Positions 2,873 to 46,835 of a stretch of 64,000 nt of DNA are shown in pieces. Source of the stretch: an uncultured Erysipelotrichaceae bacterium (GTDB lineage: Bacteria > Bacillota_I > Bacilli_A > RFN20 > CAG-826); assembly GCA_902773005.1 (NCBI GenBank), contig CACYCS010000128.1, positions 1,252 to 65,251 of the forward strand, read 5' to 3'. The number at the start of each line of letters is the position of its first letter. Position 1 is the first letter of the stretch. Below the pieces are notes generated by a model. It was given only the letters and a program-made list of their open reading frames with translations. It was not told where the DNA came from and did not search any database. A program made the position numbers and the translations under genes.

Positions 2873-2903
2873 TGTTCGCCTCCCATCGCATCTTTTTCAA
2901 GTC

Positions 2904-3019
2904 AAATGCAAATTTTGGTACAACAATTTTACACAAAAATGCAAATTTTGGTACATGTTTTTAGGTCGAAAATGCAAATTTTGGTACAACAATTTGGTTG
3001 AAAATGCAAATTTTGGTAC
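2904..3019 (+). repeat. Four direct 18-bp iterons AAATGCAAATTTTGGTAC at 33/33/32-bp phasing, in the promoter region of the DUF4143-type ATPase
   Basis: Exact copies at 2904-2921, 2937-2954, 2970-2987 and 3002-3019. Copies 1 and 3 extend to ...ACAACAATTT. Confidence 0.95.
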
Positions 3020-3025
3020 GAGAGT

Positions 3026-3427
3026 TTACATGAACAAAACCCATGGAGCGTCGTAAGAGGCGATTTTCTGGTCGTGCGTTAGAAATTTCATCCGCATGGC
3101 GGTCGACGCTCCAAGCAAAAGGCGGTCGAAAGGATCATGATGGTCCAAACCTTCTGGTTGGGCAATGCTCATGCTTGCTAAAAGCTGGTCTTGGGCAATG
3201 GGGAGCACCACTATGCCGGTTTCGTTGCAGCCTTCGATGAATTCCTCGGCGGTGAGGGTTATGGAGTCTGGCCTTTTCGCGTGCTTGATGCCGATTTCCC
3301 AAGCCGAAGCGAGGCTCACGAAGACATTGTTGCTTCGATCGGCAATCAATTCTTTGGCAAGCCTTGGCATCTTCTTTTCGCCAAGCAGATACCAATACGC
3401 CATATGCGTGTCGAGCAGGATGTCCAT
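3026..3427 (-). CDS. vapC: PIN-domain toxin, VapC family
   Basis: 133 aa. Motifs are MDILLDTH (N-terminal Asp), SLASAWEIGIK and HHDPFDRLLL. The start lies 2 nt after the antitoxin stop. Confidence 0.85.
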   Translation of the reverse strand: MDILLDTHMAYWYLLGEKKMPRLAKELIADRSNNVFVSLASAWEIGIKHAKRPDSITLTAEEFIEGCNETGIVVLPIAQDQLLASMSIAQPEGLDHHDPFDRLLLGASTAMRMKFLTHDQKIASYDAPWVLFM

Positions 3428-9586: not shown

Positions 9587-10975
9587 ATGACGGAAGAAAA
9601 AATCAGAGAACTTCTAGACCGCGGCGAAGATTTCACCATCGAGTACAAAGAATGCACAGACGCTTTGAGCCATTCGGTCTTCGAGACTGTTTCCTCCTTT
9701 TCCAACAGATATGGAGGGTACTTGCTCCTAGGTGTGGAGGAAGTCGATCATAGAGGCGTCGTCAAAGGTGTCAACCGCAACGCGGCGCCTTCGATCAAGA
9801 AGAACTTCATCAACGTGCTCAATAACCCAGAGAAGATCTCGCCATCGCTATATCTGACCTTGGAGGAATTTGAGATCGATGGGAAATTGATTCTATGGGT
9901 CTATATCCCGGTCAGCTCACAGGTTATTTTCTGCGGCGGCAGAATCTATGACCGCAATGGCGATGCCGACCAAGACATCACGGATTCGACCGATTTGGTC
10001 GCGCACCTCTATGGCAGGAAGTCTCAAACATACCACGAAAGGAAGGTGTTCCCGTTTGCGACGACCGAACATCTCCGAATGGACTTGCTCCCGAAAATCC
10101 GCCAGATGGCGCTATCGAGAAGACCCGACCATCCTTGGAAGGATATGGACGATATGCAGCTTTTCAGAAACGCGGGCCTTTACGAAGATAACATACTGAC
10201 CGGCGAGAAGGGATTCAACTTGGCCGCAATCCTCCTTTTGGGAAAAGACGAGGTCATCCAATCCGCCTGCCCCGGATACCGCACCGATGCCATTTACCGC
10301 AACGAGAACCAAGATCGCTACGACGACCGCCTGATCGTTGAGACGAATCTCGTCGAGAGCTATCAGTTGCTCAAGGACTTTATCGCCAAGCATACGGACG
10401 ATAAGTTCTTCCTTGTGGATAATGTATCCACGAGCGTGCGGGATATTATCGCAAGGGAGATTGTGAGCAATGTCCTCGTCCATCGGGAATTCAGCAGCGC
10501 TTTTCCCGCGAAAATCATCATCGATCCGGAACGCATCGTAACGGAGAATTGGAACCGCCCCCAATTTCCCGGGAGAATCGATCCAAGCGCCTTCACTCCT
10601 TACCCGAAGAACCCGACGATCGCGAAGTTCTTCGTGAACATCGGGCTCGCCGATACTCTCGGCTCCGGTGTTCGCAATCTCTATAAGTATTCCAAGATAT
10701 ACTGCGGTGGTGAGCCCGAATTAGAGGAAGGGGACGTTTTCAAAATCTTCGTTCCTTTGAAGGCTAAGGCAAACGGCGAGACAAACCGCTACGGGCTGAC
10801 CGAGCGCCAACAGGGTATTCTGTCCTTGATTAGGGCCAACCCCACCATTAAAAGATCCGAACTGGCTGAAAAACTCGAGACGTCCGATAGAACGATTGAC
10901 CGAGAGATTTCGGAAATGAGAAAGAGGGCGTTGATTACTTTTGACAAGAAAACTCAAAAATGGATCTTCATATAA
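9587..10975 (+). CDS. AlbA_2 (Schlafen-like) DNA-binding domain protein with HATPase_c_4-like region and C-terminal wHTH (RecG-C-terminal-like putative regulator)
   Basis: EDFTIEYKEC...FSNRYGGYLLLGVEE is the AlbA_2 signature. ...REIVSNVLVHREF is HATPase_c_4-like. The C-terminus LTERQQGILSLIRANPTIKRSELAEKLETSDRTIDREI is an HTH. RBS AAAGGAGG precedes ATG 9587. Confidence 0.75.
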   Translation: MTEEKIRELLDRGEDFTIEYKECTDALSHSVFETVSSFSNRYGGYLLLGVEEVDHRGVVKGVNRNAAPSIKKNFINVLNNPEKISPSLYLTLEEFEIDGKLILWVYIPVSSQVIFCGGRIYDRNGDADQDITDSTDLVAHLYGRKSQTYHERKVFPFATTEHLRMDLLPKIRQMALSRRPDHPWKDMDDMQLFRNAGLYEDNILTGEKGFNLAAILLLGKDEVIQSACPGYRTDAIYRNENQDRYDDRLIVETNLVESYQLLKDFIAKHTDDKFFLVDNVSTSVRDIIAREIVSNVLVHREFSSAFPAKIIIDPERIVTENWNRPQFPGRIDPSAFTPYPKNPTIAKFFVNIGLADTLGSGVRNLYKYSKIYCGGEPELEEGDVFKIFVPLKAKANGETNRYGLTERQQGILSLIRANPTIKRSELAEKLETSDRTIDREISEMRKRALITFDKKTQKWIFI

Positions 10976-11007: not shown

Positions 11008-11300
11008 CAAAAAATCGTCGATCACACCGTCGGTCTCATAGGAGTCGCCAAGGAGTCGCCAAGGAGTCGCCAAGGAGTCGCCAAAAAAGCGTTAGTTCCA
11101 ATGGAAATCCGCATAGGAGTCGCCACGGAAAACCATCGATCACATCGCTGTTTTCATAGGAGTCGCCAAGGAGTCGCCAAGGAGTCGCCAAAAAAGCGTT
11201 AGTTCCAATGGCAATCCGCATAGGAGTCGCCACGGAAAACCCTCGATCACGCCGCTATTTCGTATGAATCGCCAAGGAGTCGTCATGGAGTCGCCAAGGA
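11008..11300 (+). repeat. Compound repeat array: about 2.5 units of ~118/108 bp, each containing tandem 11-mers GGAGTCGCCAA (about 12 GGAGTCGCC-like copies in total)
   Basis: GGAGTCGCC occurs at 11041, 11052, 11063, 11074, 11116, 11159, 11170, 11181, 11223 and 11287. Degenerate copies are at 11265 and 11276. Unit boundaries are marked by TCGATCAC(A/G)(C/T)CG at about 11016, 11135 and 11243. Confidence 0.95.
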
Positions 11301-12810: not shown

Positions 12811-13701
12811 CTATGCATCTGGGATATCGAAATGCTTCGGGGTCTCGCTTAGGGCGGGCTTCAGGCGATGGACCGCTTGCTCAAGCTTTTCGAATAGCCC
12901 CTCTTCCTTCAATATCTTCTCCATCTCATTCGTTAGGAATGCCGATGCATCGAAATCGCCATAGGCATCGATGTAGCTTAACGCGGCCTCGGGCTCATAA
13001 TAAGTCGCGAGCAGGACAAGGAACGCTTCGTAGATCGTCCGTCTGTCCTTCTCCGCCTTGCGCTTCTCCTCATCGACTTTGACGTCGACCCCAAGCTCTT
13101 TCGCGACCTGCTTCTCGTGTTTGAAGTAATTCTTCATCTCGCGGGTCATATAATCGATTTCATTTTCACGTTCGATGTCCAAAGGCTTATCGAAATCGCC
13201 GAACTTCTCAATGTGGACGTTCCAAGGGAAATAGATGCCTTCGTCCTCGTCTTCCTCATCGAGATTAGGATCGATTTCGCCATCCAATAGCGCATATAGG
13301 CTCCCGATATTGTCTTCCCATATCCCTTGGCCTGCGCCTTCTAAGACGATGAGGGGCGCTTTGGAGTCGCGCTCAACGCGCTTCTTGTAGGCTTTGAAAT
13401 GGAAATCCCATCCGTCTCCCATGTCATAGGTGAAGTCGAATTTATCGCCGAGCTCCTCTAGCTTGTAGCAACCCATCCAGCGGTCCTCGAATCCCGGCAT
13501 GGCGTCTTTCATGAAATCGGCAGGCTGGAAGTAAAACTTCCCTTTGCTAAATTGGAACAGATGCTCCATCTCGCCGTGCACCGCGCAGACGAACCTCCAA
13601 CCGAATTCCAATAAGTCGATGTCTTCCTTCACTAGGATTACGCGGTAAAATCGCCCTTTCTCGGCATGTTCGAAGTCGGCGCGAAGCTTGATGTATTTCA
13701 T
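12811..13701 (-). CDS. pRiA4b ORF-3-like (PF07929-type) protein
   Basis: 296 aa. YRVILVKEDIDLLEF...FTYDMGDGWDFHF resembles the YDFGDxWxH signature of this family. The call is from memory only. Confidence 0.45.
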   Translation of the reverse strand: MKYIKLRADFEHAEKGRFYRVILVKEDIDLLEFGWRFVCAVHGEMEHLFQFSKGKFYFQPADFMKDAMPGFEDRWMGCYKLEELGDKFDFTYDMGDGWDFHFKAYKKRVERDSKAPLIVLEGAGQGIWEDNIGSLYALLDGEIDPNLDEEDEDEGIYFPWNVHIEKFGDFDKPLDIERENEIDYMTREMKNYFKHEKQVAKELGVDVKVDEEKRKAEKDRRTIYEAFLVLLATYYEPEAALSYIDAYGDFDASAFLTNEMEKILKEEGLFEKLEQAVHRLKPALSETPKHFDIPDA

Positions 13702-14254: not shown

Positions 14255-14626
14255 TTCTTCGGCTGTGGGCGAAATATCGATACACGTCCCTATCGGATTG
14301 CTTTCATTCGACAAATTTAGGCGTAGATAGCAAGTCGGCTTGTTCATTAAAACAGGCCGATTTCTTTTTGCGGAGCAAGAAGAAGTTAAGGCTGAGCACC
14401 ATATTCACATGCGCGAATGCTTCGGCAAGCCCCCGCGTTTGGCGTGCCTAAACCAAGGCAAATCGCGCCCAGTGCGTTTGTCATGCATCGCTTTCAATAA
14501 CGGAGAGGAAAAGGACGATGTGGGGAGTGCGAATCCTCCTATTTTCGGTCTTGGTCATGTCTCCCACTTGGTGAGTATTTGAGCCGACGGGGTTAGGATT
14601 GCTGCGTGGCAGAAGATAGTAAGTAT

Positions 14627-14697
14627 TATTGAAGTTACTTCAACAACATATTGAAGTGTTATTGAAGTTGTTATTGAAGTGTAATTGAAGTAAAATC
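14627..14697 (+). repeat. Left copy of a 70-bp direct repeat flanking the second AlbA_2 gene; built from six TTGAAGT half-sites
   Basis: TATTGAAGTTACTTCAACAACATATTGAAGTGTTATTGAAGTTGTTATTGAAGTGTAATTGAAGTAAAATC. The first two half-sites form the palindrome TTGAAGTtACTTCAA. Confidence 0.95.
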
Positions 14698-14716
14698 TTT
14701 TGCGGAGGAAAACCGC

Positions 14717-16159
14717 ATGATCCTTACTGAATTATTTCCGTCCTACACATTAGAGGATGGCAATTTTGAAGCGAAACTTATTTTGGAAAGAGACAAGCCA
14801 TTAAGCTGGTTAAAGACAGTTGACGGCTTCGCGAATGCCAAAGGCGGCACTCTTGTTTTAGGCGTGGAAGATGACGGGAAGACCGTCATTGGCTTTGACT
14901 TAGAAAAGTTAGCCAGCGAAAAGGATTTTTTCCTCAAGACCGTCCGGGAGCACTTCAAAGTTGCTCCGGTGGTCGATATTAAGCCCGTTCCTTATGAGAT
15001 ACACGGCAAGACGAGGTATCTTCTGACGATTTTCATTCCTTCGTCAAAAAGCAAACCCGTGATTCTTTCCTACGAGGGCTTGGGTTTGATCTTCATGCGC
15101 AGAGACGGATTCACGAGTCCTGCCACGGCCGAGGAAATCCGCCAAATGGCCGTCTCCACCCCTGCCGTAGCTTTCGACAGGCAAATCACAAATGTGAACT
15201 ATAATCCGGAAGATTTCCGAGGCTTCTATGCCTTTTTCCAAGAAAGAAACGAAGGGAAAATACCAAGCGAGAAAGGGTTGAAGTCTCTCCCGTTTTTCTC
15301 CGATGATGGCAAACTCTTTATGGGCGCTTATTTGTTCTCGGATTCTTTTTCCGGAGGAGAAACCAAAGTCGTATGTACCCAATACCCAGGGAAGAACCGC
15401 GGTTCGAGGGAGGTCATCGCGACACAAGAATACGAGGGTGGCCTTATTGGTGCTTATCACTTCATCGACGATTTCGTACGCTCAAGAGAAAATCACGGCT
15501 ACATCAAATATGCCACGGGCCGCAAGGACGTGGATAGCTATCCTAACCGCGCCCTTTTCGAGGCGATCATCAACGCCCTGGCCCACCGCGACTATCTTCT
15601 TTCTGGAGAGCAGATAAGCGTGGATATGTTCGTCGATCGGCTTGTGATTTCCACGCCCGGTAATTTCTACGAAGTGGGGAACCTCCCTGTGACCTATGAA
15701 ATCAAGGACCTCCTATCTAGGAAAAGGAACGAACTTGTTTGCAGTATCTTCGTCTACGCCCATGCGATGGAAGCAAGAGGGAGCGGTTTTGAGTTGATTC
15801 AGGAAGAATATGCCGAGCAAGACCGTGCACACCGTCCATGCGTTTACTCCCATTCAAATCAATTCACGATCATCCTTCCAGACATCACTTATGCACCCGG
15901 TGTGGACATCGCCAATGAAAGCATCGAGGTTCTCGGTGAAATCCAAAATGAAACAGAACGCGACACCGCGATCTTGGCTTTTTGTTTTGATCAGCCCAAA
16001 TCCAGTCGCGAGATTGCCACCTACTTAAAGATCAGTGACTCCTCCTTCCTTAGAAAACAGTTGCTTGCAAGACTCGAAGAACAAGGGTATCTCATCAAAA
16101 AGAGCCAAGGAAGAACAACGCTGTATCAATCAAACCCCGCCAGAATAAAGCTTCGTTAA
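14717..16159 (+). CDS. AlbA_2 (Schlafen-like) domain protein with HATPase_c_4-like region and C-terminal wHTH
   Basis: FEAKLILE...VDGFANAKGGTLVLGVEDDG is the AlbA_2 signature. ALFEAIINALAHRDY is HATPase_c_4-like. The C-terminus is SSREIATYLKISDSSFLRKQLLARLEEQGYL. Confidence 0.75.
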   Translation: MILTELFPSYTLEDGNFEAKLILERDKPLSWLKTVDGFANAKGGTLVLGVEDDGKTVIGFDLEKLASEKDFFLKTVREHFKVAPVVDIKPVPYEIHGKTRYLLTIFIPSSKSKPVILSYEGLGLIFMRRDGFTSPATAEEIRQMAVSTPAVAFDRQITNVNYNPEDFRGFYAFFQERNEGKIPSEKGLKSLPFFSDDGKLFMGAYLFSDSFSGGETKVVCTQYPGKNRGSREVIATQEYEGGLIGAYHFIDDFVRSRENHGYIKYATGRKDVDSYPNRALFEAIINALAHRDYLLSGEQISVDMFVDRLVISTPGNFYEVGNLPVTYEIKDLLSRKRNELVCSIFVYAHAMEARGSGFELIQEEYAEQDRAHRPCVYSHSNQFTIILPDITYAPGVDIANESIEVLGEIQNETERDTAILAFCFDQPKSSREIATYLKISDSSFLRKQLLARLEEQGYLIKKSQGRTTLYQSNPARIKLR

Positions 16160-16165
16160 GAGGCT

Positions 16166-16235
16166 TATTGAAGTTACTTCAACAACTTATTGAAGTGTTA
16201 TTGAAGTTGTTATTGAAGTGTAATTGAAGTAAATC
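16166..16235 (+). repeat. Right copy of the 70-bp direct repeat flanking the second AlbA_2 gene
   Basis: Identical to 14627-14697 except for one A/T substitution and one A indel. It starts 7 nt after the stop codon. Confidence 0.95.
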
Positions 16236-16548
16236 TATCATTTGGATTTCAAACCATTTTCGCACCAAGGATCCTGCGGGTTTCCATTGCCCCACAATCA
16301 TATAAAGGATAGTCATGGTTTCCTAAATTCATGCTGAGGAAAAAGTCCATGATGATGAGCTATTGGCCGCAATCGAGAAGACTAGCGAATCTGCAAAGGC
16401 GCCCTTAAATTCCGCCACAAGAGAAAGCAGGGCAAGAATCCATTAAGGCTGTGCACCATATTCGCGATTTTGATTCGCATCGAGCAATAGAATCTCGCAT
16501 CAATTTTCTAGGTCCGCCACAAAACAAGTTTGGCTTGCTACTATCGGG

Positions 16549-18614: not shown

Positions 18615-18720
18615 AACCGCTGGGTATAACGTCATTTTGAAGGGATAGCCAGCGGTTTTATTCAAATTTTAGGCAAAAACCGCTGGGTATAACGCATTTT
18701 CGGTGGGATAACCAGCGGTT
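18615..18720 (+). repeat. Two 43-bp imperfect palindromes (AACCGCTGGGTATAACG..N..GGGATA(G/A)CCAGCGGTT) directly upstream of the ATPase promoter
   Basis: Copies at 18615-18657 and 18678-18720. The 9-bp arms AACCGCTGG/CCAGCGGTT are perfect. A TATAAT -10 box lies at 18749-18754. Confidence 0.95.
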
Positions 18721-18773: not shown

Positions 18774-20201
18774 ATGATTTTAGTCGGAAGAGAAAACGAA
18801 AGGTCCATGCTGTTGAACGCTTATAGCAGTTTCAAACCGGAATTTGCCGTCATATATGGCAGGAGAAGGGTCGGCAAAACTTATCTTGTGGATGCGACTT
18901 TCGATGGCAAATACGCTTTTCGACACAGCGCCCTACCGCCTGCTACCGATGTCGGGCAAAGTGAGATGAGCCCGCTTCAAAGGCAACTCACGCATTTCTA
19001 TTACTCATTGCTTTCCTTCGGTCTGAAGCCTACGAAAAAACCAAAGAACTGGGCCGAGGCGTTCTATTTGCTGGAAACAATGCTTTCTAAGAAAGAAAAC
19101 GAACGACTCGTCATCTTTTTAGACGAACTGCCTTGGTTCGACACGCCGAAGTCTGATTTCGTTTCCTATTTCGTCGGGTTCTGGAACAATTGGGCTTGTT
19201 TCCATAACGTCTTACTGATCGTTTCGGGTAGTTCAATTAGCTGGATAACCAACAAAATGTTCCTTGATCATGGCGGATTGTATGGCAGGCCTACGCTTCG
19301 CATTGGTCTATTGCCCTTCACCCTCAAGGAAACTGAACGGTTTCTCATTCAAAAGGGCGTCGTTCTTTCGCGTTACGACATCGCGCTTGCCTACATCTAT
19401 TTCGGAGGTATCCCTTATTACCTCGACATAATCCAGCCTGGGTTATCGCTCCCTCAAAGCATAGACCAAGCGTTCTTCGCTGAAAACGCACCGCTTCGAA
19501 ACGAGCTCGACAATCTCTTCAAGGCAAGTTTTGGACGTCCCGAAGCAATTCGAGACATTGTCTTGGCACTGAACACTAGGCGCGATGGCTTAACACGCGA
19601 CGAGATCCTGAAACAAATCGGCAAAGAAGACGGAGGCACGTTCTCAGAGAATATCAAATCCTTGGAACAAGCCAATTTTGTTTCGTCATATAAGCGCCTT
19701 GGCGAAGCGGACAAAAGATACCGTCTAATCGATGCGTTTTCAAAATTCGCGCTCCTATTCCAAGAAGGATTGGAAACCCATGACGAGCACTACTTCAGTA
19801 ACAATTCCAGCTCAGGCTCACTAAACGCGCTGAAAGGCTATGGCTTCGAAAATCTTTGTTTCAGCCATGTGCCGCAAATCAAATTTGCTTTAGGAATCAG
19901 CGGCGTAGCGTGTTCGGCCTACTCCTACTCGCTTAAAAAGGATGGTGCCCAAATCGACATGGTCTTGCAAAGGAAAGACAACATAGTGAATCTCTGCGAA
20001 ATGAAGTTCACCACCGAGCCTTATCGCCTCTCCAAGGAAGACGAAGAATCGACGCATCAAAAAGTAAGCGCGATAGAAAAGCTGATTCCTGATTCAAGCG
20101 CAGTCCATCCTGTATTGGTCACTACCTATCCAGTTGGCTCAAGCAGATACCAATCGTTATTCGCGAAAACAATCACTCTCGATGATCTATTCGCCATCTA
20201 A
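18774..20201 (+). CDS. AAA+ ATPase (archaeal-ATPase/PF01637-like) with C-terminal DUF234-like E..D..ExK block; paralogue 1 of 5
   Basis: Walker A is YGRRRVGKTYL and Walker B is VIFLDELPWFDT. Further blocks are IVSGSSISW, GGLYGR and GGIPYYL. The C-terminus reads GFENLCFSH...AQIDMVLQRKDNIVNLCEMKF. A GGAGG RBS is present. Confidence 0.8.
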   Translation: MILVGRENERSMLLNAYSSFKPEFAVIYGRRRVGKTYLVDATFDGKYAFRHSALPPATDVGQSEMSPLQRQLTHFYYSLLSFGLKPTKKPKNWAEAFYLLETMLSKKENERLVIFLDELPWFDTPKSDFVSYFVGFWNNWACFHNVLLIVSGSSISWITNKMFLDHGGLYGRPTLRIGLLPFTLKETERFLIQKGVVLSRYDIALAYIYFGGIPYYLDIIQPGLSLPQSIDQAFFAENAPLRNELDNLFKASFGRPEAIRDIVLALNTRRDGLTRDEILKQIGKEDGGTFSENIKSLEQANFVSSYKRLGEADKRYRLIDAFSKFALLFQEGLETHDEHYFSNNSSSGSLNALKGYGFENLCFSHVPQIKFALGISGVACSAYSYSLKKDGAQIDMVLQRKDNIVNLCEMKFTTEPYRLSKEDEESTHQKVSAIEKLIPDSSAVHPVLVTTYPVGSSRYQSLFAKTITLDDLFAI

Positions 20202-31571: not shown

Positions 31572-31690
31572 ATTCCGCTTCATTTGGTAGCAAAAACATA
31601 CAATAATCAGCGGAATACACCCGTTTTTGCATGGCATTCCGCTGAATTTGGTATAGAAAACCTACAATAATCAGCGGAATTGAATTTTAT
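31572..31690 (+). repeat. Two 45-bp elements with inverted termini ATTCCGCT...AGCGGAAT at the 3' end of ATPase paralogue 2
   Basis: Copies at 31572-31616 and 31636-31680 (39/45 identical). Copy 2 plus TGAATTTTA overlaps the stop codon at 31687-31689. Confidence 0.9.
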
Positions 31691-33141
31691 ATGCCTGCTG
31701 GTGCGAATAGCGCGTCCAGGGTAACGGCCTTGCGGAAATCATCCGCGTATTCGCCTCTAGAAAGGCCAATGGTCGTGATCAATGTCGGGACGACCTGGAC
31801 GTCTGGCTTCGTTTCCTTGGCGAAGATCGCTTTTCTTTTCTCAAGCACGCAATGATAATCGTAGCTCACCGAGAAAATGCCAGAACGGTATTTCATCTCG
31901 CAGAGATTGATGATGCCGTCTTTCCTTTCGATCACCAAATCCACCTGCGTCTTCTTCGACTTCTCCTCGGCGATGAACCAGGAGAATTGCATTGTCTCGA
32001 TACCAGATATGCCTAGCGCGGCCTTGACCTGGTCGAGATGAACGAAGACGAGGTTTTCGAATGCACGCCCCTTCCATTCGTTCTCCTCACCCATGGAAAC
32101 TTCGTCTTCCCAGACGTTTCCGTTTAGGCTTACCCTGCCTTCGACCTCGCGAAGGTAAAATAAGCAATACGGGTCAATCAATTTGTAATAAGGGATGTTC
32201 TTCTTTTGCCCATACGGCGTGTAGCGCAAGACGAAACTGCCAAATTCTAGCGCGCGCAAGGCTTTCGAGAATCGATCTCCGTCTTTCAATGCAACGGCAA
32301 ACAAAAGCTCCTCTCTAGTCATCCCCTGCTCGGATGTCGATAGGACCCTCACGATGGATTCACATAGGGAAGACGCATCGAACATCGAGGAGAATAGGCT
32401 CGCGAATTCGCCTTCGAGTTTTGGCGATTTCCCGAAGAAAATCGCATCGATGTTCTCGGCGAAGCTCATATCGGCATCGAATTGCTTCAGGTAGAACGGA
32501 ATCCCGCCAAGGCACATGTAGGCCGCGGCGATCCTAAGGCGAGGCAAATTCCCCATCCCGCAGGATCGAAGAAGCGATTCGGCTTCGAAAAGCTGGAATG
32601 GCTGAAGGTGCAGTCTCAAAGTCGCCCGATCATAAAGCCCGCCGCTATCGGCGACGATGTTATCGATCATCCAGGATGTTGAGCTACCCGCCACAACGAT
32701 GAGGACGTTGGCATCGGACTCCATGATATTGTTGATGAACCAGCCAAACGACTCGAGGAAGAGGGACCTCGGGGTATCCATCCACGGTATTTCGTCGAAG
32801 AAGATTACCTTTCTTGTTTTCCCGCCGTCAGCGCGGATTTTTTCGATAAGAAGCGCAAACGCTTCAAGCCAGCTCGTCGGCGTTTTGATCGTTTGACCAA
32901 AATAAAGCCGGAACGACAATGCGAACGCCCTTAGCTGAACGTTGAGTTTCCTCCCTTTCGTCTCCAGCATCCGTTTTGGCGAGACGCCGAGGTGCCTGAA
33001 AAAGAATTCGCGGTCAAAGGCCTCTTCGATGAGGGTCGTTTTTCCAACACGAAGGCGGCCATCAACGACGATAAGTTCATTCTCCTTTGACCGGAATCGA
33101 TTTCTGAGCTTCGTCAATTCCTTCTTTCTTCCAACGAACAC
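31687..33141 (-). CDS. AAA+ ATPase with C-terminal E..D..ExK block; paralogue 2 of 5
   Basis: GTG start. Blocks are DGRLRVGKTTL, VIFFDEIPWMDT, VVAGSSTSW, GGLYDR and GGIPFYL. The C-terminus is AFENLVFVH...TQVDLVIERKDGIINLCEMKY. Confidence 0.8.
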   Translation of the reverse strand: MFVGRKKELTKLRNRFRSKENELIVVDGRLRVGKTTLIEEAFDREFFFRHLGVSPKRMLETKGRKLNVQLRAFALSFRLYFGQTIKTPTSWLEAFALLIEKIRADGGKTRKVIFFDEIPWMDTPRSLFLESFGWFINNIMESDANVLIVVAGSSTSWMIDNIVADSGGLYDRATLRLHLQPFQLFEAESLLRSCGMGNLPRLRIAAAYMCLGGIPFYLKQFDADMSFAENIDAIFFGKSPKLEGEFASLFSSMFDASSLCESIVRVLSTSEQGMTREELLFAVALKDGDRFSKALRALEFGSFVLRYTPYGQKKNIPYYKLIDPYCLFYLREVEGRVSLNGNVWEDEVSMGEENEWKGRAFENLVFVHLDQVKAALGISGIETMQFSWFIAEEKSKKTQVDLVIERKDGIINLCEMKYRSGIFSVSYDYHCVLEKRKAIFAKETKPDVQVVPTLITTIGLSRGEYADDFRKAVTLDALFAPAGI

Positions 33142-35070: not shown

Positions 35071-35125
35071 GAGCTACCCCTCTTTCTAATTACTATATTA
35101 GTCAAAAATAAAAGGAATTTCGACT

Positions 35126-35197
35126 TATTTTTGACACTTATAAGGCAAATTTGGCTTATATCTATCAAAAATAAAGGCAAAATGGCTCGAAAATTGA
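35126..35197 (+). repeat. Upstream copy of the 72-bp direct repeat flanking ATPase paralogue 3
   Basis: 69/72 identical to 33538-33609. A partial third start (TTGACACTTATAAGG) follows at 35194-35208. Confidence 0.95.
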
Positions 35198-35647
35198 CAC
35201 TTATAAGGTATTCGAGTCGTATTACAACCGACATCCCGCGGTCAATTACCTATCGTTGCAATTGCGTTGCCGGATAACGTCAATCGAAATAGCAATGTTT
35301 CATGATGTCTCCTTTTGATTGGGCTCACCCCTGCTTCATTTTGGCGAATCGCCCGTCCGCAAAATGCGCGATGTCCCTTCTCGCGGTTTTCTTTCGCGCC
35401 GGGAAACGTCCCCCTCGGATTAAAAGCGCATAATGAGATAAAGCTTCGACCCATCCCTCGAAAAAGGGAAACGTCAAAGGGGCCCATAATGCCAAAAAAT
35501 CGCTAAGAAAACCGAAATTGCATATCCCAGTTTCCTATTGTAACCGCTTTCATTCCCTTGTTTTAAAAAACAAGAAATCTTTTTCTTTATTTTTTTCGTT
35601 TCGCATGTAACATACCGGCATTCCAAGTGCGTAACGCGCACGGAGGT

Positions 35648-46381: not shown

Positions 46382-46433
46382 TGTTATGCTCCTTTTCCAC
46401 GCTTATTATGACATGTCATAAATTTATAATCCA

Positions 46434-46545
46434 CGATAATTAGCGTTATTCAAGCATTTTTGGTCGGATAACGCTGTTTATCCAGCGATTTCAGCCCGAT
46501 AATTAGCGTTATTCAAGCATTTTTGGTTGGATAACGCAGTTTATC
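46434..46545 (+). repeat. Two 49-bp direct repeats (63-bp period), each with inverted AGCGTTAT / ATAACGC arms, upstream of ATPase paralogue 4
   Basis: CGATAATTAGCGTTATTCAAGCATTTTTGGT(C/T)GGATAACGC(T/A)GTTTATC at 46434-46482 and 46497-46545. Confidence 0.95.
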
Positions 46546-46835
46546 TGCCATATTGAACATTGGCCGCAACAAACATGATGAAACCAAGGAACGCGCTATG
46601 CCTATGCACCGTTTTTTCGATACGCGCAAATGGGATTGCCTCGTTTGAATCGAATGGCTAGGCGTTGCTCCATAAATAGCGGAGAGCAAAATAAAATCGA
46701 GTAGGGGCTATTTATTAATTTGGTGCCCAGCCTGTACCTATCTAACGTCCTTGTTTTTATAGCGGACAAAACGCGTCCGCGCGCCTAGCCTAGGGGTTCC
46801 GCTATGCTAATGAATGATGAACAAGGAGATGCAAA

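Follow-up and report, generated by a model that had tools for sequence, protein, structure and literature searches.

Near-identical TTGAAGT arrays bracketing a Schlafen-like gene: putative ends of a small one-gene mobile cassette in gut bacteria

A gene lying between two almost identical copies of a 70-bp sequence raises the question of what the copies are: the ends of a mobile unit, a substrate for deletion, regulatory sites, or the trace of a local accident. One such gene, encoding a protein with an AlbA_2 domain, is found in the window considered here, a stretch of 64,000 nucleotides (G+C 51%) from an uncultured Erysipelotrichaceae bacterium.

The repeats and the gene between them

A repeat finder and blastn align positions 14626-14694 with 16165-16233 at 68 of 69 nucleotides; when extended to 14626-14698 and 16165-16236 (73 and 72 nt, both on the forward strand), the copies differ by one substitution (14648/16187) and by a single base in an AAAA/AAA run. 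Each contains the palindrome TTGAAGTtACTTCAA and four TTGAAGT sites spaced 11, 12, and 11 nt apart. In the left copy the head-to-head palindrome (TTGAAGT-T-ACTTCAA, 14629-14643) is a putative dimer site and the direct sites begin at 14651, 14662, 14674, and 14685 (14651-14691, forward strand); in the right copy the palindrome occupies 16168-16182 and the sites begin at 16190, 16201, 16213, and 16224, again with 11/12/11 spacing. The window contains 14 occurrences of ATTGAAGT against 1.8 expected, ten of them inside the two repeats, and none of 100 shuffles reached this count. The gene (14717-16159, forward strand) is closely enclosed, with the left repeat ending 18-19 nt before the ATG and the right repeat beginning 6 nt past the stop codon. 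The original prediction, of near-identical direct repeats of about 70 bp, each with a palindromic pair and four direct repeats 11-12 bp apart and together tightly bracketing the AlbA_2 gene, is borne out in all these respects. A search of Rfam with the repeat gave no match and its fold as single-stranded DNA is not significant (z-scores of -0.7 and -1.9, with the palindrome confined to the first 15 nt), which together favor a site in duplex DNA.

The 480-amino acid product has an AlbA_2/Schlafen domain (residues 17-133; PF04326, E 8e-13, 49.4 bits against a gathering cut-off of 25.3), a HATPase_c_4 domain (297-387; PF13749, E 7e-15, 55.3 bits against 26), and a C-terminal winged helix (approximately 414-470), as assigned from the list of open reading frames, Pfam, an AF2 model, and Foldseek. 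HTH_27 scores 20.4 bits at the C-terminus, slightly under its cut-off of 22.2; the AF2 model has a pLDDT of 89.5 overall and about 90 at the winged helix, which matches HlyU, SmtB, CzrA, and ZitR, repressors of the ArsR/MarR type, with an rmsd of 1.5-2 A in Foldseek. The region of the C-terminal helix is conserved in the homologue alignment, where S442, L453, and L459 are invariant. The whole model retrieves 3lmm at E 5e-22 and also Schlafen/SAMD9 nuclease domains. E13 and E18, five residues apart, are at least 90% conserved among the homologues and the GVxD motif is also present; the match of these glutamates to E211 and E216 of SLFN14 is one of alignment register only, because the aligned stretch begins at profile position 33. 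The protein may have nuclease activity. Short metatranscriptome contigs map on the gene. NCBIfam gave no match for the protein, PADLOC gave only weak partial matches to Argonaute-associated proteins, and no defense-system neighborhood was found around the gene.

The upstream array across the protein subfamily

The subfamily to which the protein belongs (about 480 amino acids) is small, with 146 cluster representatives among 1.84 billion at E<=1e-30. The upstream flank could be read in 23 distinct homologues, which have 38-97% identity and come from Firmicutes, Treponema, and Succinimonas; every one of them has an array directly 5' of the ribosome-binding site and on the strand of the gene. Twenty of the 23 have 4-10 exactly spaced sites, while in L079 and L070 the array is displaced or degenerate; of 20 arrays scored by a spacing script, 19 had 4-10 sites spaced 11/12 nt, the script having mis-scored L011, in which four sites were counted by eye. 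A palindromic or near-palindromic pair stands at the equivalent position in the window, L002, L011, L165, and L034. The TTGAAGT core is unchanged across proteins of just 38-50% identity, and the repeats of the window and L002 are 96-97% identical where the genes are 76% identical in DNA; by this measure the left array is under stronger conservation than the gene. Many members of the subfamily do not have any downstream copy of the array. The upstream copy, as far as sequence can indicate, is a conserved operator-promoter array common to the whole subfamily, which is the main point absent from the original prediction. Arrays with an 11-nt period were also considered as a general trait of AlbA_2 proteins; the GGAGTCGCCAA array after AlbA_2 gene 1 of the window is absent beside a 74%-identical homologue, so this generalization was not adopted.

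A sigma-70-like promoter can be recognized by consensus match among the sites of the left repeat (14668-14696, forward strand), with TTGTTA at -35 (14668-14673), a 17-nt spacer, and TAAAAT at -10 (14691-14696). Of 20 homologues, 17 have the pattern TTGAnn-17-TAnnnT within the array; TTGAC or TTGAT comes from the 5-nt spacers and a hexamer resembling TATAAT from the last spacer, with a weak -10 in some family members. A Shine-Dalgarno sequence, GGAGGA, is read at 14704-14709 on the same strand, 7 nt 5' of the ATG, and in most homologues 8-12 nt separate the end of the array from this element. The promoter-like elements recur in the right repeat, where they face outward (16213-16241).

In operators of the OmpR/PhoB type, a core of 6-7 nt is repeated directly in tandem every 11 bp, and winged-helix domains bind the cores head to tail. 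The arrays resemble these in their 7-nt core and 4-5-nt spacer, their tandem placement on one helical face, their overlap with a promoter, and the winged-helix protein encoded alongside; a core at this period over a promoter is what the 11/12-nt spacing (19/20 arrays) and the internal -35/-10 elements (17/20) amount to. However, the protein here does not belong to the response regulators, an array can have up to 10 sites as well as an inverted site, and binding is predicted. The encoded Schlafen-like protein most likely binds the TTGAAGT array and controls its own promoter. In the explanation preferred here the left repeat would be the gene's own operator-promoter: several protomers would use the C-terminal winged helix to bind the 7-nt sites head to tail, and with a site every 11-12 bp they would line up along about one face of the DNA, as in OmpR/PhoB-type boxes; the palindrome would be bound by a dimer. 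The -35 and -10 elements fall within the spacers, so occupation of the sites would shut the promoter, and a potentially toxic Schlafen-type nuclease would be tightly autorepressed.

The array may instead sit in the 5' leader. Action at the level of RNA, with the array transcribed in the 5' leader and 3' UTR and bound by the AlbA_2/Schlafen domain for translational or stability control, would suit the few nucleotides between array and Shine-Dalgarno sequence, the binding and cleavage of RNA by Schlafen/AlbA_2 domains, and the finding that in bracketed members no intrinsic terminator separates the stop codon from the right copy. It is nevertheless improbable: a strict 11/12-nt spacing together with a 15-nt palindrome is characteristic of duplex-DNA sites, promoter hexamers at an exact 17-nt spacing in the array would put the start site past most of the array, the repeat has neither a significant fold nor an Rfam match, and the protein has a canonical winged helix.

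Cassette boundaries and the second copy of the array

The homologue L002 (81% protein identity) is located between pheT and mraZ in another organism, and its DNA similarity to the window (76%) extends from the outer edge of the left repeat to that of the right, L002 5907-7514 corresponding to window 14623-16229. The left repeat would be both operator-promoter array and left end of a cassette, and the right repeat, in which the similarity stops at 16229, both a terminal duplicate of the array and the right end. The layout of repeat, gene, and repeat recurs in seven more diverged homologues, all with unrelated contexts. Without exception among the eight bracketed elements, the right copy stands 0-25 nt past the stop codon, with 1527-1580 nt from repeat to repeat and left/right identities from 99% down to 80%; the eight lineages are deep branches (42-52% identity), all of them bracketed. 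The bracketed layout is a trait of the family and not a local accident. That there are just two copies in the window, in a region that the outer 37-nt repeat marks as prone to rearrangement, could speak for a chance tandem duplication of a promoter or for mis-assembly, but the layout recurs in independent assemblies and runs of the species and in the seven other diverged elements with their unrelated contexts, so that this explanation can be given almost no weight.

The outer repeat itself was part of the original prediction, as a further similarity beyond both copies, and it is real: 30 of 37 positions are identical between 14370-14406 and 16427-16463, around a 21-mer core (20/21) with just these two copies in the window. 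L002 does not have this similarity, and other strains of the window's species have part of the left copy replaced; on this comparison it lies outside the cassette proper. The proposed cassette boundary is well supported by the end of L002 similarity at the repeat edges together with the same layout in the seven further homologues. The hosts include Lachnospiraceae, Christensenellaceae, Solobacterium, Treponema, Succinimonas, and one Butyrivibrio megaplasmid, and the cultured carriers are Butyrivibrio proteoclasticus B316 (pCY360, WP_013282674.1), Treponema sp. HNW, and one Roseburia hominis assembly. The elements occur singly between housekeeping genes, without cassette arrays; the ends are direct and not inverted, the AlbA_2 protein is the sole open reading frame, and no target-site duplication is visible at five junction pairs. 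The repeats are, on these alignments, the ends of a small, one-gene, horizontally mobile cassette in many gut bacteria. Another group of the family, with 16 members, does not have the right repeat, and two of them (L033 and L096) are 96% identical over just 1621 nt in two unrelated contexts; duplication of the array is therefore not required for mobility. Phage or plasmid was considered as the vehicle, on the basis of one copy on the Butyrivibrio megaplasmid and one truncated virome contig, neither of which is informative on mechanism. Pfam, PADLOC, NCBIfam, and fold searches did not relate the protein to any tyrosine, serine, or DDE recombinase or to an HUH nuclease, and no recombinase or integrase was matched by Pfam among the scanned neighbors in the window or in the Pfam lists of L002, L007, L011, and L015. 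To our knowledge there is no known mechanism by which a transposase-free unit duplicates 70 bp of its own end upon insertion.

The locus is chromosomal and present in a single copy. Public runs that contain it come from bovine and sheep gut, and contigs continue unbroken into housekeeping genes; the gene unitig has 0.8-0.9x the depth of the flanks and the repeat unitig 2x in X2-X4, while in X6 the gene unitig is 1.3x deeper than the flanks. An integrated mini-replicon, with an iteron-type origin, an initiator protein, and bracketing due to integration of a plasmid of greater than unit length, is very improbable. A palindrome beside tandem direct repeats of 11-nt period, with a predicted DNA-binding protein encoded next to them, does recall the origins of iteron plasmids, the structure equals one unit plus one array, and some homologues are on plasmid or virome records. 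However, no Rep-family domain was found in the protein by Pfam, NCBIfam, or fold search, depth is that of the chromosomal flanks, no circular form was seen, and every insertion has the same repeat boundaries, unlike the random breakpoints of concatemers. Circular or tandem units were also sought in the longest contigs of homologues, of 1513-1600 nt; these contigs end exactly 30 nt from variants internal to the repeat, so the Logan contigs of 1.53-1.56 kb are fully accounted for by graph breaks at k=31 and are not circles.

Strains of the species differ in the repeats. Substitutions in the right repeat are found at 16176, 16185, 16187, and 16197, and of those in the X6 haplotype four lie in the right copy, one lies within the left copy (14648), and one marks the 3' boundary of the left copy (14698); from a strain of the L011 species, a 23-nt double site is gone. 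Right copies, on the evidence of these alignments, decay over time. At 14648/16187 the strains have the left and right alleles (A,T), (A,A), and (T,A), so that alleles appear swapped between the copies, which could reflect parallel mutations. Other genomes contain solo arrays of this architecture without the gene (L044, L053, L052, L081, L060, L055, L133, L131, and L144), and those of L060, L144, and L055 have the layout of palindrome and four sites; a scan of metagenomes for repeats of the window type gave five matches, of which four are coding sequence or due to chance and the fifth is a solo array from an AT-rich organism. Among assembled contigs from public runs, every strain of the species keeps the gene, no empty or solo allele was found at the window locus or at any orthologous locus, and no circle junction or tandem form was found in those searched. 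The exact neighbor proteins retrieved just L139, which is identical, and L140, which was rejected as an empty site: it diverges after 14427 into an unrelated gene, which indicates a variable region. The aquaporin neighbor of the gene had no record in the protein look-up. At the L011 locus, approached through NusG, same-species contigs are all occupied and the nearest species has a different synteny. The view of the repeats as a substrate for recombinational deletion, for which the original prediction advised a search for single-repeat alleles without the gene, thus has indirect support only: solo arrays in other genomes and the swapped alleles agree with it, but the orthologous loci yielded neither a solo nor an empty allele and the gene is in every strain.

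The same observations bear on a model of att- or res-type recombination sites, in which the encoded protein or a host enzyme excises a 1.54-kb circle of one array and the gene that re-integrates at solo arrays, these being both footprints and landing pads. The integrated form would be one circular unit and one array, in keeping with a right copy 0-25 nt past the stop in 8 of 8 elements; both copies are retained in all eight deep lineages, solo arrays with the full layout exist, swapped alleles are expected from a cycle of excision and reintegration, and the protein has a conserved Schlafen-type acidic triad whose catalytic role is putative. This model is unlikely, though not negligible: the occupied loci yielded neither a circle junction nor a solo allele or empty site, in X2-X4 the gene has about the depth of its flanks, the protein is unlike the recombinases and HUH nucleases named above, the other family group moves without a right repeat, and to reach new loci the cassette would need solo arrays already there, a circular requirement.

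The preferred explanation is an autoregulated, transposase-free mobile cassette with a right array derived from insertion, and it is put forward at about even probability. The 1.6-kb unit would comprise the TTGAAGT array with its promoter, the gene for the Schlafen-like, HATPase_c_4, and winged-helix protein, and a second array copy. The right repeat would be dispensable for regulation and would arise as a terminal duplication when the unit of array and gene inserts, the integrated form representing one unit of a circular or tandem permutation and one extra array. The right copy would then drift and serve as homology for exchange between the repeats, and loss of the gene between them would leave a solo array. 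Retention of the right copy by all eight deep lineages would be surprising for a mere decaying by-product and fits either a role in cis at both ends or very frequent re-insertion. A bolder proposal, and a decidedly doubtful one, is that the elements represent selfish DNA of a new, transposase-free class: the protein would assemble on its own TTGAAGT arrays and itself move the unit of array and gene, by cutting at or near arrays followed by copying or integration with terminal array duplication, or by homing into solo arrays, and the 70-bp repeats would be functional ends rather than a by-product.

Known systems and significance

The same three-domain architecture is found in COG2865-type proteins, for example DIP2311 of Corynebacterium diphtheriae (PDB 3lmm), which are annotated as [quoted passage not shown] "RecG-like," or "putative DNA-binding domain-containing"; here one subfamily is linked with a particular cis array and with cassette-like mobility. 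No functionally characterized member of the COG2865 type, and no description of such cassettes, was found in the searched literature. Schlafen nucleases are known from prokaryotes and animals and include SLFN11, SLFN13, SLFN14, SAMD9, and the CRISPR-associated Cash (PMC13462974). The N-terminal domain resembles theirs by profile and fold, with conservation of the FAN-GG-x-GVxD core and of a pair of glutamates five residues apart, but the protein here does not have a CARF-like or Csx15-type sensor or a helicase domain and has HATPase_c_4 and a winged helix fused instead.

Several mobile elements have partly similar structures. Integron cassettes (attC, such as the Vibrio VCR) also have a promoter-proximal open reading frame between direct repeats, of 60-130 nt, and a unit of one reading frame and one repeat; in contrast, the repeat here is not an imperfect hairpin, is upstream and promoter-bearing, and has no integrase among the scanned neighbors and no cassette array. 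LTR-type elements and solo LTRs share terminal direct repeats that range from near-identical to diverged, solo repeats elsewhere, and a promoter within the repeat, but the single reading frame here encodes no reverse transcriptase or integrase and the repeats are 70 nt. Unlike IS elements, MITEs, and DNA transposons, the cassette has no terminal inverted repeats, visible target-site duplication, or transposase. In a comparison with homing endonuclease genes, Pfam gave no LAGLIDADG, GIY-YIG, or HNH domain in the protein; solo arrays exist, and none was found at a position orthologous to an occupied locus.

Genes combining AlbA_2, HATPase_c_4, and HTH domains are among the commonest unexplained paralogues of gut bacteria. 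For one subfamily, this locus provides a predicted recognition sequence, TTGAAGT with an 11/12-bp period, and a predicted autoregulatory circuit, as well as clear evidence for passage of the gene between phyla in a self-contained unit of 1.5-1.6 kb with defined ends and without a transposase. If the Schlafen-type active site works, the unit would be a compact, mobile, tightly repressed nuclease module like those of immunity systems; should the protein move its own cassette as well, this would be a new mechanism of mobility.

Repeats in the window and the encoded protein

The original prediction of near-identical direct repeats on either side of an AlbA_2 gene is borne out by a repeat finder: positions 14626-14694 and 16165-16233 of the window are identical at 68 of 69 nucleotides, and with one gap allowed the match lengthens to 14626-14698 (left) and 16165-16236 (right). 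Both copies begin with the palindrome TTGAAGT-T-ACTTCAA and continue with four TTGAAGT sites at 11, 12, and 11 nt spacing, as had been described; ATTGAAGT occurs 14 times in the 64 kb against 1.8 expected, with 10 of the 14 inside the two repeats. A single ORF (14717-16159) is enclosed, its ATG 18 nt past the end of the left copy and its stop codon 6 nt before the start of the right copy. The reported outer similarity is genuine as well (14370-14406 and 16427-16463, 30/37), and is specific to some strains, not common to related cassettes.

The 480-aa product has an AlbA_2/Schlafen domain (17-133), HATPase_c_4 (297-387), and a winged helix at the C-terminus, and is a member of an uncharacterised COG2865-type family. 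An AlphaFold model from 42 homologues is confident (pLDDT 89.5). By Foldseek, the whole protein matches the uncharacterised 3lmm (E 5e-22), the N-terminal domain resembles Schlafen and SAMD9 nuclease domains, and the C-terminus resembles ArsR/SmtB/HlyU/MarR repressors; the family profile matches Schlafen chains and the CRISPR-associated Schlafen tRNase CbCash. The family conserves E13, E18 (five residues further on), and a GVxD motif, which we infer from alignment register to be counterparts of the Schlafen catalytic acids.

The cassette is flanked by an unrelated gene for a small lipoprotein-like protein, with a terminator, and by an aquaporin gene in convergent orientation. The intergenic DNA to its left is a strain-variable hotspot: the outer 37-nt repeat (within 14370-14541, and at 16427-16463) is haplotype-specific, strains in sequencing runs X3, X6, and X28 have 26 nt (AATCACGTCCAGGCTATCCATCGGTC) in place of 14379-14541, and L140, a contig sharing the window's neighbour proteins, diverges past 14427 into a minus-strand ORF that by eye is like a Nif11-type leader peptide. 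At 12811-13701 (minus strand), 1 kb upstream of the cassette and in a stretch with many lone, unrelated genes, is a gene for a PRiA4_ORF3-like (plasmid pRiA4b ORF-3-like) protein.

The array as a putative operator

About 68 full-length relatives (40-97% identity) came out of a protein search, and an exhaustive search gave 146 cluster representatives at E<=1e-30 out of 1.84 billion. A scan of 185,579 genomes for TTGAAGT in triplicate, with a spacing of 10-13 nt, picked up many unrelated repeats and also about 20 loci at which the array is followed, 25-90 nt further on and on the same strand, by the start of a homologue; among their hosts are Christensenellaceae, Lachnospiraceae, Roseburia, Solobacterium, Lachnoanaerobaculum, Treponema, and Succinimonas. 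The homologue on the Butyrivibrio proteoclasticus B316 megaplasmid has the array too. Every distinct element with a readable upstream flank (23/23) has an array, a degenerate one in L070. The array ends 8-12 nt from the Shine-Dalgarno sequence in most of the 23, with a longer gap in L079, L019, L045, and L134. Strict 11/12-nt spacing with 4-10 sites was found in 19 of the 20 elements scored by script, which mis-scored L011 (four sites by eye).

Interspersed among the sites in 17 of 20 homologues is a TTGAnn-17 nt-TAnnnT pair, the -35 coming from the 5-nt spacer (often TTGACT) and the -10 from the last spacer (TATAAT, TATTAT, or TAAAAT). Between the window and its homologue L002 the array is 96-97% identical and the gene 76%. 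Neither an Rfam match nor a significant single-strand fold was obtained for the array. Together, this conservation, the interleaved promoter pair, and the lack of an Rfam match or fold point to a putative duplex-DNA operator over the gene's own promoter, to be read by the encoded winged helix; that the arrays work at the RNA level is quite improbable. By analogy, such an array would work like OmpR/PhoB-type tandem boxes.

Other genes in the window have repeats of their own. Just 3' of a second AlbA_2 gene (9587-10975) is a distinct 11-nt-period array (11040-11296) of GGAGTCGCCAA, four times at 11040-11084, three times at 11158-11191, and in more copies to 11296, within a 107-nt higher-order repeat (x2.3); the gene has a 74%-identical homologue, on an ICE-like element, with no array of this type beside it. 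Four of five AAA-type paralogues (ATPase_2, AAA_14/DUF4143) are each preceded, no more than 200 nt from the start, by direct or palindromic repeats private to that gene (2900-3040, 18615-18720, 35100-35200, and 46420-46550), including four copies of GTACCAAAATTTGCATTT before the 2872 gene and two of a 43-nt palindromic unit before the 18774 gene; the fifth (31687-33141) has no obvious upstream repeats. This suggests that gene-specific autoregulatory operators are common among these scattered AAA-type paralogues. The ATPase_2 protein of 18774-20201 has a full-length match (E 9e-152) to PDC-S27, a candidate defence family in PADLOC.

Bracketing, mobility, and possible exchange between copies

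By clustering, 24 distinct proteins fall into two groups. The 16 members of group A (59-86% mutual identity) have the upstream array only, usually with an intrinsic terminator after the gene; one, L104, has a partial second array copy. Group B (the window, L001, L002, L007, L011, L165, L015, and L034; 42-52% mutual identity) is bracketed in all eight members, the right copy starting 0-25 nt past the stop and spanning the whole array, with a start-to-start spacing of 1527-1580 nt. That the repeats are a local accident or artefact is refuted. From this position and spacing, the integrated form reads as an array-plus-gene unit with one extra array, as though a circular or tandem form had been copied. 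The bracketing, universal in group B, favours att/res-like recombination sites, both required for excision and integration, a reading that we consider rather unlikely. While attC-flanked cassettes and LTRs are similarly bracketed, the defining features of each that were examined here are lacking.

The predicted cassette boundary is well supported, as DNA similarity between the window and L002 is confined to 14623-16229, from the left repeat's first base to the right repeat's last site, and homologues lie in differing contexts. L002 (81% identical) is between pheT and mraZ; others adjoin lacI-like/Band_7 genes, adenine glycosylase/nusG, or an acyl-CoA synthetase-like gene. In the other branch, L033 and L096 hold one element in unrelated contexts, with 96% identity limited to 1621 nt; its left end is 68 nt ahead of the inverted site and its right end about 12 nt past the stop, with no target duplication or right repeat seen. 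The unit is mobile and, in the comparison of the window with L002, ends at the edges of the repeats. Domain, defence-family, and NCBIfam searches found no transposase, integrase, or Rep domain in the cassette; an integrated iteron replicon is highly improbable. The 1.53-1.56-kb contigs of many homologues were considered as circles and rejected, as the de Bruijn graph breaks at repeats.

Left/right identity is 99% in L011 and 97% in the window, then 94%, 90%, and 80%. Within the window's species, in the X6/X10/X28 haplotype, with a 1.8% difference in the gene, the right copy has four substitutions (one in the palindrome), while the left has one (14648) and another at its 3' boundary (14698). 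In the L011 species, the right repeat of a 95%-identical strain has two direct sites rather than four (L152 893-935 versus L148 4625-4700) and has lost precisely one double unit of 23 nt, so the number of sites shifts by two at a time. These right-copy substitutions and the lost double site indicate a left copy that is constrained and a right copy that drifts.

The proposed substrate for recombinational deletion is supported only indirectly, by solo arrays elsewhere and by swapped alleles at 14648/16187, but the gene is kept in every strain seen. Gene-less arrays of the same architecture occur between genes in Hallerella, Lachnospiraceae, Blautia, a Bacilli MAG, and others. The window carries the alleles (A,T), X2 and X4 carry (A,A), and X6 carries (T,A), a pattern to be expected from inter-copy exchange, with parallel mutation as the alternative. 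Assembled contigs revealed no gene-less strain of the window's species, and unitig depth is twice that of the flank for the repeat and about once for the gene. Two solo-array loci, in Hallerella of the Fibrobacterota (L044 2560-2700) and Lachnospiraceae (L053 3770-3880), have a common 23-nt leader, ATTGAAAT(C/T)(A/C)GGTCATCATT(C/T)CA, before the array, and therefore the same gene-less array type in two phyla. In run X6 (14665-16227), the gene unitig has a depth of 55.5 against flanks of 42.9 and 41.1, with a 36-nt repeat unitig at 95; this 1.3x cassette excess, absent in X2-X4, may come from a co-occurring strain with a second insertion, from additional copies, or from noise in coverage.

As the most likely reading, we give about even odds to an autorepressed, horizontally mobile one-gene cassette, in which the left repeat would be the operator-promoter and the right a terminal duplication tied to the insertion process, which may decay later and could mediate exchange or gene loss. 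Nothing on such cassettes was found in the literature searched.
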